Assembly (NCBI RefSeq): GCF_000002075.1
Contig: NW_004797970.1
Span: 176,859 to 193,924, forward strand
Length of the DNA: 17,066 nt
Direction: 5' to 3'
Source: Aplysia californica
Taxonomy: Eukaryota
Of the stretch, positions 2,007-13,207 are shown one piece after another. Under the pieces are notes generated by a model. It saw nothing but the letters and a program-made list of their open reading frames with translations. It searched no databases and was not told the DNA's origin. Both the position numbers and the translations under genes were made by a program. Every line of letters begins with the position of its first letter. The first letter of the stretch is position 1.

Positions 2007-2140
2007 ATGACATCCCGTAAAGAAGATAATGCGATTTTTCGCATCCCGCCCTACTATTACATCCATGTGTTGGACCAAAACACCAATGTCACCAGAATTG
2101 AGATTGGTCCCCAGACCTTCATTCGCCAGGATAACCAAAG
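2007..2140 (+). CDS. MVP: MVP coding exon 1: [44 protein letters not shown] plus 2 nt of R.
   Basis: ATG at 2007 (ORF-track 2001 is an in-frame TTG). Matches the MVP N-terminus (..[28 protein letters not shown]). Donor CAAAG|GTACGT at 2141. Confidence 0.88.
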
Positions 2141-2530
2141 GTACGTGCTGTTTTTTGTGGAAGAAACAAAAAAAACACCCCTTGTCGACACTAGGTGTTG
2201 TCGGGAAATGTAGATTTGGCAAAGCACTTTAATTAATAAGTTTAATTGGTATTGATATGGTAATCATTTTACTCTCTGCCTGTGTGCTATAGAATTCTCT
2301 TTCTGTGGATTCAATGTGCCTATTGAAGGACGGTACTGTCATATAGTTATTTTTAGTGTACCAAATGAGTAAAATTTAAAATCTGGTGGTTTTAAATAGG
2401 CCTACAATCTTTTGCCTTGAAATAATTGTGATGTTTGTGGAAAGACCATGATACAATGATGACATGGTGCTGCAGTATTCTTGATTCCTATAAATTTGGT
2501 TAAGTTGTGCAATACTTTGTTTCTCTTTAG

Positions 2531-2726
2531 GGTTACTCTTGGGCCAGAGAAAATGGTGGTTGTCCCACCTCGCCATTATTGCATGATTGAGAACCCAGTG
2601 TTCAGAGACAAAGATGGCAAACCTGTCATTGATCAGCTGGGACAGACGAAGCTTCAGCATGCAGATCTGGAGATTCGTCTCACACAAGATCCCTTCCCCC
2701 TCTTTCCAGGGGAGGTTTTGAAACAG
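2531..2726 (+). CDS. MVP: MVP coding exon 2: (R)[65 protein letters not shown].
   Basis: Acceptor TTCTCTTTAG|G at 2529-2530. Matches human RVLFAPMRMVTVPPRHYC...[24 protein letters not shown]. Donor AAACAG|GTATAC at 2727. Confidence 0.9.
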
Positions 2727-2767
2727 GTATACAGACAATATTTTGGGTTTGTTTTATCTTTTTTTTT

Positions 2768-2843
2768 TGTGGGGGGGGGGGAGGTGGAGAGGAGGAAGGG
2801 AGGGGGAGGGTATCTATATAGAGGTATAATAATAATAATAATA
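2768..2843. repeat. Homopurine G/A tract followed by (TAA)6, in intron 2.
   Basis: GTGGGGGGGGGGGAGGTGGAGAGGAGGAAGGGAGGGGGAGGG ... ATAATAATAATAATAATAG. Preceded by T10. Confidence 0.8.
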
Positions 2844-3536
2844 GATAGCATTTAAATAGCTCAAATTCACGATCAACAGCAAGCTCTAGGTACTTAACAA
2901 TCTATATTATTACCTCAGCAGACCTGATAGCATTCTGAAACAATCTCAACTTCCTGGGAGTGAAGCATACAGTGAGTAAAAGAATACAATTGTCAGTGCT
3001 TTTAATGAAACTGTTTTTCCGCATTTATGATGTGTAGATAAGAGTTATTGTAAAAAGGTGGAGGGGAACCTGATGCAACGGCAGACATTGGTTTGCTTCT
3101 ATTATCTGCTTTAATAAATGAAGGGTAGGTAGTTTAGTAATTCCTTGGCTGTTGTCGCAGTACGTTGCTTTGTTAATGATTGTAGGCTTTGGTGTGGAGC
3201 AAAAAATAAGTACTCCGAAAAGTTATGGCTCAAATTATCTTTTTAAATAAATGGGATTTGACCTGTAGACCCTATATATCTCTATAGTGTGCAATTTTTA
3301 TTTTTACTTTTTTTATTCATAATGCTCATTATCTAAATGTGCCTTCCCTTGTGAAGTTTTGTGAAAATAAATTTAGTTAGCTTGTCTGTAAGATAAGTTA
3401 TCTGGTTTGGAAAAACAGAAACTGAAATATCATTCTTGTAGTGTGATTTCTCTTTCTTTGTACATCCTTGATAAATAACTTGTGTTCATAACATGTCTGG
3501 GTTTTTTTCATTAAAAAAAAAAGTTCCCTGAGAAGT

Positions 3537-3606
3537 CATGTTACTGTGGTCATGTTACTGTGGTCATGTTACTGTGGTCATGTTACTGTGGTCATGTTAC
3601 TGTGAT
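3537..3606. repeat. 14-bp minisatellite, 5 tandem units (CATGTTACTGTGGT), in intron 2.
   Basis: Four perfect units plus one G>A variant unit, immediately upstream of the exon-3 acceptor region. Confidence 0.85.
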
Positions 3607-3649
3607 GGCAATAATAACTGAATTTGGTTGTGCTCTTTTTACTTTTCAG

Positions 3650-3773
3650 CCTGTTACGGCTTTGAAAGTGGTTCCAGCTAATGCTGCTCTCAGAATACGC
3701 GCAGTTCTCGACTATGAGGATGCTGAGGGAGAAAAACGCACAGCTGGAGATGAGTGGCTCTTTGAGGGTCCAG
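3650..3773 (+). CDS. MVP: MVP coding exon 3: [41 protein letters not shown] plus 1 nt of G.
   Basis: Acceptor TTTTACTTTTCAG|CCT. Matches human ..[40 protein letters not shown]. Donor CAG|GTATGT with the intron starting at 3774. Confidence 0.88.
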
Positions 3774-4161
3774 GTATGTAAATCTATGGGTATTCATCAA
3801 ATTATGTGGAGATGAAATTTATCAGTATACAGTTGAAACAGTTTTAACGGCCACGTGTATAAGACAATCGTCTATACAAGTGGCTGCTTCCCATTTTTTC
3901 TTTGCAATTTTTAGAGAATTGTAATGACACTGTGTTAGATGGCCACTTTTCTTCTCTACAGTGGGAGGTCGTCTTGGACAATTTTGACGATACGTGTTTC
4001 TCCCATTCTGCATTTGACATGTATCGTTAACATGACAATTTGAAATATGTTATTGATTTGTGCCAACCTACAATTATATCTTACACTTCCACCTTTTTTA
4101 TTCTTGAGTTGATTCTGTTCAGTATTACATGAATCTTAAAAGTGTTTTCCTGCTTATCCAG

Positions 4162-10904: not shown

Positions 10905-11148
10905 ACATGAAGCCGAGCGCTTGGAGCAGGAGGCCAAAGGTCGTCTGGAGCGACAGAAGATCATGGACGAGGCGGAGGCGGAGAAGGCCCGCAAGGAGCT
11001 GCTGGAGCTGCAGGCCAATAGCGCGGCTGTCGAAAGCACCGGCCAGGCCAAGGCTGAGGCTCAGAGCCGAGCGGAGGCGGCCAAGATTGAGGGAGAGGCA
11101 GCTGTGGAGCAGGCCAGGCTCAAATCTCAGGCCACCAAGATTGAATCT
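10905..11148 (+). CDS. MVP: MVP coding exon 13, first half of the coiled-coil cap-helix: (R)[81 protein letters not shown].
   Basis: Acceptor TTTCTGTGATTCCAG|A. Matches human [65 protein letters not shown]. Donor TCT|GTGAGT at 11149. Confidence 0.92.
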
Positions 11149-11789
11149 GTGAGTGTCCGCTCTGATGGCAGTTTAGGAGTAGTGATAAATAAATGCTGTT
11201 ACAACTATGCAAGACTTGTAGAACGAATGATGTATAAATGATCATACAGCTTCGCAACGGTTGCCTGGTTTCAGAGGTAAAATTAGCAAGAAAATGGCCG
11301 TCAAAGTTTGGTGACTTCCATAGCTTAAGAGTCCTTGAAAACTTCAAATTTAAATTTGTTTTGCCATTAATGAATGTTTTTCCATAAAATCCACTCATAA
11401 AAGTGTTTTTGAATGGACATACAAGGTGTTGAGCCAAAAAACAAAAATTCAAAAAAAATGTCCAAAGTGGCTGAAAAATGCAGTTTTCTCAGATTTAATT
11501 ACTTTGATTTTTTAATGCTTTTGCATAGTTCTTTTCTCACAACGATGGTGCGATGAGTATAATACACTAATAGATCTAGAGCTTAGTCTGAGTTTTGTGT
11601 CCACTCTCCAGGAATCTGAGCTGGAGCGTCAATGATAACTTCATATAGACTTTTGGTACTTTAACATCCTGTTATATTTTGACCATAAGAAAAGTATGAA
11701 GGATGAAGGATTTATATTTCCCTGTCCTTCTATTTGCACTCTCATAAGTTTCATACCGATGATGTCTGACACAACTTCTAAATACAAGT

Positions 11790-11951
11790 ACATGCAAGTA
11801 AAATTTCCACATTTACAAAAGACTTTTATAAACGTTTGTCATCAGAGTATGTAACTAGGTTTGCAACAATGAAACATTTTTTGGCGTTTACCTGACCAAA
11901 TCTGAGTCGATAGTGCCGAAAACACCTACTCAAACTCAAACAAACAAGAGC
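11790..11951 (+). repeat. Second copy of the about 165-bp repeat, in intron 13, ending about 35 nt upstream of the exon-14 acceptor.
   Basis: See 10418-10586. Same orientation. Confidence 0.7.
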
Positions 11952-11984
11952 TAATTCTGAGCCATATGTCCACCTGCTTTACAG

Positions 11985-12173
11985 GAAGCGGAACTGGAGC
12001 GTCTGACCAGCGCCCGTGAGGCAGAGCTGAAGTACCTCTCGGAGCAGAACAGGATGGAGCTGGAGAAGGCCACGGAGATGTCCAACATCGAGACCACCAA
12101 GTTCAAGGAGATGGTGGAAGCCATCGGAACCCAGACCCTGCAGACCATGGCTACTGCAGGACCTGACATGCAG
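11985..12173 (+). CDS. MVP: MVP coding exon 14: EAELERLTSAREAELKYLSEQNRMELEKATEMSNIETTKFKEMVEAIGTQTLQTMATAGPDMQ.
   Basis: Acceptor CTGCTTTACAG|GAA. Matches human [64 protein letters not shown]. Donor CAG|GTGAGT at 12174. Confidence 0.9.
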
Positions 12174-12240
12174 GTGAGTTCGCATGCCGCACGCCGCACT
12201 TCCCCATTCAGATATTATATGTTGTGTTGTGTTGTCAATT

Positions 12241-12607
12241 TGTGGGTGGTTGGAGGGCGCTCTGGTACGTATGTTTTGCTCCTTTTTTCCCCCCGACCGG
12301 TTAAACATCATTCATCCTTATCTCTTCCTTTTTCTTTTCTATTCGGGTGGTTGGCAGGTGCTCCGGTGAGATTTTTCTTCTTTCCTATCAAACATCTATC
12401 GCCCTGATCTCTCCTCCCTTTTGTGTTTGTTACTCTTGTACCACCTCAAATTTTCGGCTTTTATGTGACCTTATTGTGTTGCAAGTGCTGTAAAACTCTT
12501 AATAAAACTATACTTTCTTTTCTTTGTTACTCTCTAGTAACACCCTAATTTTTGGCACTTATATGACCTATTCATGTTGAAAGTGCCATAAAACTCTTAC
12601 TAAAACA
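12241..12607 (+). repeat. Cluster of three adjacent SINE-like copies in intron 14, all in the same orientation: partial head 12241-12340, near-full copy 12345-12510, tail fragment 12514-12607.
   Basis: GTGGGTGGTTGGAGGGCGCTCTGGTACGTATGTTTTGCTCC...; GGGTGGTTGGCAGGTGCTCCGGTGAGATTTTTCTTCTTTCCTATCAAACATCTATCGCCCTGATCTCTCCTCCC...TGACCTTATTGTGTTGCAAGTGCTGTAAAACTCTTAATAAAAC; ...TATGACCTATTCATGTTGAAAGTGCCATAAAACTCTTACTAAAAC. Confidence 0.7.
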
Positions 12608-13057
12608 GGGCCCTTGCCTCCTCATTTTGGTTTCATAACTGTCTGAAGAAAAATAAGACACCACATGGTTTTGTTTCTTTCCTCATTGTGTGAAGCAGAA
12701 TCAAACAAAATTACAGTCCAACTTGCCCGAAGTTCCACCTGTCCAAGACAATAACCTGTACAAATGACCATTTCCCATATTCCCTTTGCAGTTTTAAGAA
12801 TTTTTTTACATTGTTGTTATAGTTATAACACTGTGTAAGATGTCAACATGTCTAAAACAATTACTTTTCTCTTCAACATAAATTGGTCGTTGTAGACAAT
12901 TTCGACTGTATCATGATTATTATTATTTTTAGCAGTAGTAGAAGTAGTAGTAATAGTAGTAGTAGTATTATGTCTATTATTTTTTGTTTTTATTATTATA
13001 TTAATTAAATCTTGCCTATGTATTTTTTAACTCATGATTTCTTTTTCTCCATCTCAG

Positions 13058-13207
13058 GTCCGCATGCTGCAGTCTCTGGGTCTCAAGTCGACGCTCATCA
13101 CCGATGGATCGTCCCCGATCAATTTGTTCAACACGGCCTCAGGGCTCATCGGGGGCCTGGTGCCCAAACGGCATCGCGCCAGGGATGATGATGACGATGA
13201 CGAGTAA
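13058..13207 (+). CDS. MVP: MVP terminal coding exon 15: [49 protein letters not shown].
   Basis: Acceptor TTCTCCATCTCAG|GTC. Matches human [35 protein letters not shown] at 13205-13207. Confidence 0.9.

Follow-up and report, generated by a model that had tools for sequence, protein, structure and literature searches.

Does the long split open frame in this stretch of Aplysia californica DNA represent a complete and ordinary major vault protein (MVP) gene, or does it call for another explanation? We examined the whole 17,066-nucleotide stretch, hereafter the window, for which a preliminary description had proposed a complete 15-exon MVP gene at positions 2007–13207. The locus is almost certainly the A. 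californica MVP gene, complete in its coding part and annotated in RefSeq as XP_005108623.1. The match to this record together with the transcript-confirmed exons means that the proposal was right but brings no discovery, as the gene in the window is already known, annotated and an ordinary MVP. The value of the result is that of quality control, in that the window is metazoan and the feature a textbook, annotated, housekeeping-type gene. The accompanying view that the window is eukaryotic, so that a prokaryote-style scan does not apply, likewise holds for a gastropod mollusc source, and there is no prokaryotic or new system to be sought in an Aplysia MVP window.

Gene model and coding frame

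The MVP coding span occupies window positions 2007–13207 on the forward strand and consists of 15 coding exons separated by 14 canonical GT-AG introns, each with GT at its start and a pyrimidine-rich tract followed by AG at its end. Splicing gives a frame of 2562 nt that encodes 853 amino acids and a stop, which bears out the previously proposed open frame of about 853 residues from 15 exons joined at GT-AG sites. The ATG at 2007, where translation starts, has A at −3 and is preceded by an in-frame TAA (1995–1997), and the TAA stop codon ends at 13207. The exons were initially located using a human MVP guide sequence, and all conclusions were re-derived from database results.

Coding exon 1 (2007–2140, 134 nt) holds the ATG and the N-terminus of repeat R1 and is followed by the donor GTACGT, while exons 2 (2531–2726, 196 nt) and 3 (3650–3773, 124 nt) contain a Pfam Vault_2 match at residues 53–110 and a Vault repeat at residues 116–157, respectively. 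The frame continues through exons 4 (4162–4388, 227 nt), 5 (4986–5111, 126 nt), 6 (5508–5618, 111 nt), 7 (6299–6418, 120 nt) and 8 (6825–6974, 150 nt) to exon 9 (7428–7666, 239 nt), with a Vault_4 match at residues 378–436. Exon 10 (8422–8619, 198 nt) encodes repeat R9 and opens the shoulder (Vault_3 at residues 454–515 and MVP_shoulder from residue 516 to 633), and the shoulder domain extends through exon 11 (8953–9094, 142 nt) into exon 12 (10160–10371, 212 nt), which also contains the start of the cap-helix and a near-invariant 31-letter motif. Exon 13 (10905–11148, 244 nt) encodes the cap-helix coiled coil and exon 14 (11985–12173, 189 nt) the C-terminal part of the cap-helix. The coding part of exon 15 (13058–13207, 150 nt) encodes the cap-ring, with a 22-letter motif, and a basic-acidic tail of 13 letters before the TAA stop. 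The protein motifs quoted in the preliminary description were located at residues 13–25 (13 letters), in exon 12 (47 letters) and in exon 15 (22 letters).

Transcript evidence

Alignment of same-species transcript data had been put forward as a check on the intron positions and the terminal exons. An independent RNA-seq contig that contains no introns (3282 nt, from Logan SRR385814) confirmed all 14 positions and, for their coding parts, the first and the last exon. The contig aligned to the window in 15 blocks whose edges coincide with those of the exon model, and its alignment to the spliced window was ungapped over 3281 nt with six mismatches. Five of the six differences fall in coding sequence, and four of these five are synonymous; the only non-synonymous one is T/G at 9026 in exon 11, giving S567A. 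Differences at 6 of 3281 positions look like ordinary polymorphism. The contig match shows that the MVP gene is expressed and correctly spliced. MVP transcripts have been reported to increase in aged Aplysia sensory neurons (PMC6042401), and mass spectrometry of kinesin transport complexes from Aplysia has detected XP_005108623.1 (PMC9829102).

The contig also extends the gene beyond its coding part. A 5′ untranslated region of at least 22 nt (1985–2006, forward strand; contig positions 1–22) adjoins coding exon 1, and a 3′ untranslated region of about 697 nt (13208–13904, forward strand) adjoins exon 15, with AATAAA at 13881–13886 and the contig end about 17 nt downstream at ~13904, where the contig reads A and the genome C. 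The mRNA is at least 3.3 kb long, and the transcript reaches from 1985 or further upstream to ~13904. The preliminary description of 2007–13207 as the complete gene was therefore accurate for the full coding span and too narrow for the transcript. The AG at 1984–1985 could serve as acceptor site of an additional non-coding 5′ exon.

Protein identity and domain content

At all 853 of 853 residues the spliced protein agreed with XP_005108623.1, which RefSeq names “major vault protein [Aplysia californica]”. This exact match and the near-identical RNA-seq contig, with 6 differences in 3281 bases, are the basis of the species assignment. A protein search with the spliced product, the other check that had been suggested, returned MVP and nothing else as best matches. 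Among the 120 homologues listed, those with a descriptive name were all called MVP, and each of the 120 carried the full set of five MVP Pfam domains; the closest named matches among them were heterobranch gastropods (85–89% identity). The repeat domains scored 223 bits for Vault (four stretches), 135 bits for Vault_2 (two stretches), 125 bits for Vault_3 and 85.5 bits for Vault_4, all far above the curated Pfam cut-offs of 23–29 bits for the Vault-family repeat domains. MVP_shoulder (PF11978) follows the repeats and was matched over its entire profile (positions 1–118 of 118), with a score of 178.5 bits that is likewise far above its cut-off. The N-terminal MVP repeat array, the shoulder domain and the cap-helix with cap-ring were all found, and the gene is orthologous with annotated metazoan MVP genes in both sequence and exon structure.

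Alternative readings of the locus

Four MVP genes have been reported in Aplysia (PMC9334734), which leaves room for a reading in which this locus is a diverged MVP paralogue with a role outside vaults and not the principal vault shell gene. The split of gastropod proteins among the matches listed into two identity groups points the same way, with one group at 85–89% (Biomphalaria, Bulinus, Physella, Lymnaea, Arion) versus another at 75–78% made up of second proteins of Biomphalaria pfeifferi, Physella, Lymnaea and Arion. However, the window protein belongs with the more conserved of these groups, aligns at 67% identity to solved mammalian MVP over its full length with all domains present, and the 14 introns of its gene all sit at positions shared with the Biomphalaria gene named MVP. 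It is also expressed, and its product has been detected as protein. We consider the paralogue reading highly unlikely for the window gene.

A non-functional gene copy at this locus, or an exon model joined by chance from open reading frame fragments, has a vanishingly small probability and was rejected on the match to the RNA-seq contig. A spliced transcript fits the model, and its coding differences are synonymous in all but one case; the frame is intact over 853 codons with every splice site canonical, and the MVP product has been seen by mass spectrometry (PMC9829102). The reading as the ordinary MVP gene of A. californica is the one we retain.

Search of the window flanks

The window was also searched for RNA genes and for a second protein-coding gene. 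An Rfam scan of the window at E ≤ 1 gave no Vault (RF00006) match, so no vault RNA was seen, and ARAGORN found no tRNA in the window. Two sub-threshold Rfam matches at 1715–1780 on the reverse strand lie over a TAGATC tandem repeat and were judged to be chance. Among the eight longest flank open reading frames, a Pfam scan yielded sub-threshold matches only and hence no second gene; these matches were to HTH_48 and DUF4817 (E ~0.04–0.06) and to APP_N (E = 0.0018, 19.1 bits, under the 22.1-bit cut-off).

Proposed function and C-terminal tail

By analogy with the solved rat and human vaults, the Aplysia protein would form the hollow, barrel-shaped vault ribonucleoprotein from 78 copies, 39 in each half, with the N-termini meeting at the waist and the cap-helices bundled into each cap. 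An MVP in such a particle would further be expected to associate with TEP1, PARP4 and vault RNA. The protein follows the usual MVP layout, in which nine N-terminal repeats and an SPFH-like shoulder lead into the long coiled coil of the cap-helix, the cap-ring and a short basic-acidic tail. This basic-then-acidic C-terminal tail, 13 letters long in Aplysia, takes the form KRRR followed by a D/E-rich part in the eight other mollusc MVPs and one brachiopod MVP inspected. It might be a conserved lophotrochozoan motif that lines the interior of the vault cap and gives a cargo-binding or localisation property with no mammalian counterpart, though we regard this suggestion, a speculation drawn from a sequence pattern, as improbable. 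All other features of the locus are fully accounted for.

Comparison with known MVP genes and structures

The mammalian C-terminal extension is longer than the short basic-acidic tail of Aplysia and has a high content of Pro, Gly and Ser. Nine distinct PDB MVP sequences matched the Aplysia protein, and solved full-length chains aligned in one stretch (residues 7–836 versus 4–850, E = 0, >1230 bits, 66.7% identity), in agreement with the earlier claim of colinearity with vertebrate MVP, which holds from the N-terminal repeats as far as the cap-ring. The C-terminal fragment 9z5n_B matched residues 739–836 (E = 1e−30). Mammalian MVP (PDB 4V60, 4HL8 and 7PKR from rat, 11dr, 9z4w and others) has the same domain order of repeats, shoulder, cap-helix and cap-ring, whereas the Aplysia protein is shorter (853 versus 861–893 residues) and lacks small insertions present around repeats 7–8 as well as one of 10 residues in the shoulder.

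Identity to a solved vertebrate-type chain, when broken down by exon, was highest in the aligned part of exon 15 (81%), followed by exons 13 (76.5%), 12 and 10 (both 76%) and 11 (74.5%), and the motif quoted from exon 12 was identical at 41 of 47 residues. The strongest conservation had been placed in exon 12 and in exons 13–14, which stands for exons 12 and 13 but fails for exon 14, the least conserved of all exons (46%).

Gene structure was compared with that of Biomphalaria glabrata (GCA_025434175.2, CM074213.1), whose MVP gene encodes a protein 89% identical to that of Aplysia, has a similar span (~12.3 kb) and has 14 of 14 intron positions in common with it in protein coordinates. The flanks of the two genes showed no coding similarity by tblastx, with nothing below E = 0.37; in Biomphalaria Med24 lies downstream on the opposite strand, whereas the Aplysia sequence that follows the gene, 3.1 kb in length, had no match to Med24. 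The exon model, transcript ends and conserved intron positions may be useful for the curation of mollusc MVP genes, while conceptually they offer nothing new. The protein itself does not differ from A. californica XP_005108623.1.

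Gene structure and transcript evidence

The window is AT-rich (GC content 36–46%), and its + strand carries numerous short stop-free segments with translations resembling the major vault protein (MVP). Exon segments were located with a guide sequence, after which each junction was examined individually. The model that we obtained has 15 coding exons, running from the ATG at 2007 to a stop ending at 13207 (+), with a spliced frame of 2562 nt (853 aa plus stop), exactly the span, exon number and approximate protein length put forward in a preliminary description. All 14 introns (333–1065 nt) start with GT and end with a pyrimidine-rich tract and AG.

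Same-species RNA-seq, the check named in that description, confirmed all 14 junctions. An intron-less 3282-nt contig assembled from SRR385814, which encodes the MVP protein P0001, matched the window by BLASTN in 15 blocks whose edges were those of the model exons apart from the usual overhang of a few bases. When checked base by base against a spliced sequence composed of window 1985–2140, the 13 internal exons and 13058–13904, the contig differed at 6 of 3281 positions (8578, 9026, 10908, 13108, 13186 and 13728), with no gaps. These differences look like ordinary polymorphisms between individuals. Five are in coding sequence, four of them synonymous, and the sole non-synonymous one (T/G at 9026, giving Ser567Ala in the shoulder domain) accounts for the single residue by which P0001 departs from the RefSeq protein XP_005108623.1.

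The contig covers 1985 to ~13904, such that 2007–13207 holds as the coding span but not as the extent of the transcript. The 5′ UTR is at least 22 nt long and has an in-frame TAA at 1995–1997, making 2007 the first in-frame ATG; an extra non-coding 5′ exon is possible, as the AG at 1984–1985 could act as an acceptor. The 3′ UTR spans ~697 nt, with AATAAA at 13881–13886, ~17 nt before the contig end, where the last position reads A instead of the genomic C, as would be expected if a poly(A) tail began there. A 50-nt unit is repeated within the 3′ UTR (13296–13406, 2.2 copies, 76% match) and is transcribed, since the contig covers it.

Protein identity and conservation

The spliced protein matched the Pfam families Vault (four stretches), Vault_2 (two stretches), Vault_4, Vault_3 and MVP_shoulder, all five with scores far exceeding the curated cut-offs. 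A PDB sequence search returned MVP chains only; full-length chains aligned in a single stretch (query 7–836 versus chain 4–850, E = 0) with a computed identity of 66.7%, in agreement with the proposed colinearity with vertebrate MVP. The comparison with MVP orthologs that had been suggested gave MVP as best matches: a large protein search found 2948 homologues, and in the best 120 of these all five domains were present in every protein (120/120) and every descriptive name was MVP. The closest named matches among those listed were heterobranch gastropods (Biomphalaria 89%, Bulinus 87%, Physella 86%, Lymnaea 86%). The top cluster comprised P0001 and XP_005108623.1, "major vault protein [Aplysia californica]", and because the latter is identical to the spliced translation (853/853), the window is genomic DNA of A. 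californica and the gene is already annotated. The reading as an MVP gene is thus supported, and the gene is an already known, ordinary feature.

Identity to a solved MVP chain was highest in exon 15 (81%, aligned part), followed by exons 13 (76.5%), 12 (76%), 10 (76%) and 11 (74.5%). Strong conservation had been described for exon 12, and this was borne out, with 41 of 47 residues of the quoted motif identical; the peak described for exons 13–14 applied to exon 13 but not to exon 14, which had the lowest identity of all exons (46%).

Beside the group with 85–89% identity, four homologues encoded outside the window (P0057, P0068, P0084 and P0089) formed a second heterobranch MVP group, 75–78% identical to the window protein. 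This is consistent with the several MVP paralogues reported in Aplysia, in the genome of which four MVP genes have been described (PMC9334734). The C-terminal tail (aa 841–853; 13169–13204) consists of a basic cluster and then an acidic run, and a KRRR... and then D/E-rich tail also ends the eight other mollusc MVPs and one brachiopod MVP inspected (among P0003–P0084).

Repeats and flanking sequence

Both interspersed and tandem repeats, of the kind usual in metazoan genomes, are present in introns and the downstream flank. A ~200-nt family with the core ...GGGTGGYTGGCGGGTGCTCTGGTGTGGTTTGCTCC...GACCTTATTGTGTTGCAAGTGCTGTAAAACTCTTACTAAAA... was represented by at least six copies, complete or partial, that share one orientation and are located in introns 7, 9 and 14 as well as downstream of the gene (6560–6810, 7880–8160, 8170–8420, 12280–12606, 14190–14400 and 15990–16240). 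The family, which matched neither a tRNA nor any Rfam entry, is probably a SINE-like element of Aplysia. The tail of the intron 14 copy is tandemly duplicated with a 98-nt period (12426–12606). One of the copies (8319–8421) ends right at the exon 10 acceptor site, its A-rich tail leading into the T-rich tract and CAG before exon 10 (8422), and the element may therefore contribute part of the polypyrimidine tract. A second dispersed repeat occurred in two copies with ~84% identity in introns 8 (7141–7300) and 11 (9807–9938), the latter directly after a long (ATC)37 microsatellite (9707–9817; 94% pure, ACC interruptions). Intron 14 also has a shorter TAG tract (12930–12967, ~13 copies), and intron 2 a perfect tandem repeat of five identical copies of the 14-nt unit GTCATGTTACTGTG (3535–3604).

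No vault RNA or other Rfam family reached threshold in the window, nor were tRNAs found. The only two Rfam matches (sbrA and mir-259), both sub-threshold, fell on a TAGATC tandem repeat (1715–1789, 7.8 copies) ~200 nt upstream of the transcript start and were judged to be chance. The flanks (1–1984 and 13905–17066) had no convincing coding content and nothing in common with those of the Biomphalaria glabrata MVP locus. A short ORF at 15258–15419 (−), possibly reaching 14560–14922 (−), had sub-threshold matches to HTH_48 (E = 0.038) and DUF4817 (E = 0.059), helix-turn-helix domains of mariner/Mos1-type transposases; on this weak evidence, it may represent the decayed remains of a DNA transposon.

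Predicted vault assembly and conserved gene structure

Presence, splicing, expression and domain architecture were directly established for this gene, while assembly was extrapolated from the known vault structures of rat and human, to which the matched PDB entries belong. By analogy, 39 MVP chains would make each half-vault, with the N-terminal repeat R1 (exons 1–2) forming the waist contact between halves, the cap-helix coiled coils (~aa 634–790, exons 12–14) packing side by side and the cap-ring (exon 15) closing the cap. XP_005108623.1 has been reported from anterograde transport complexes of Aplysia kinesin (PMC9829102), and MVP up-regulation in aged Aplysia sensory neurons (PMC6042401).

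The B. glabrata MVP gene (GCA_025434175.2, CM074213.1) aligned with the Aplysia protein in 15 blocks, and the breaks fall at protein positions matching those of the Aplysia junctions (45, 110, 152, 227, 269, 306, 346, 397, 476, 542, 590, 660, 741 and 804). Because the breaks coincide in protein coordinates, all 14 intron positions are common to both genes, across two heterobranch lineages.
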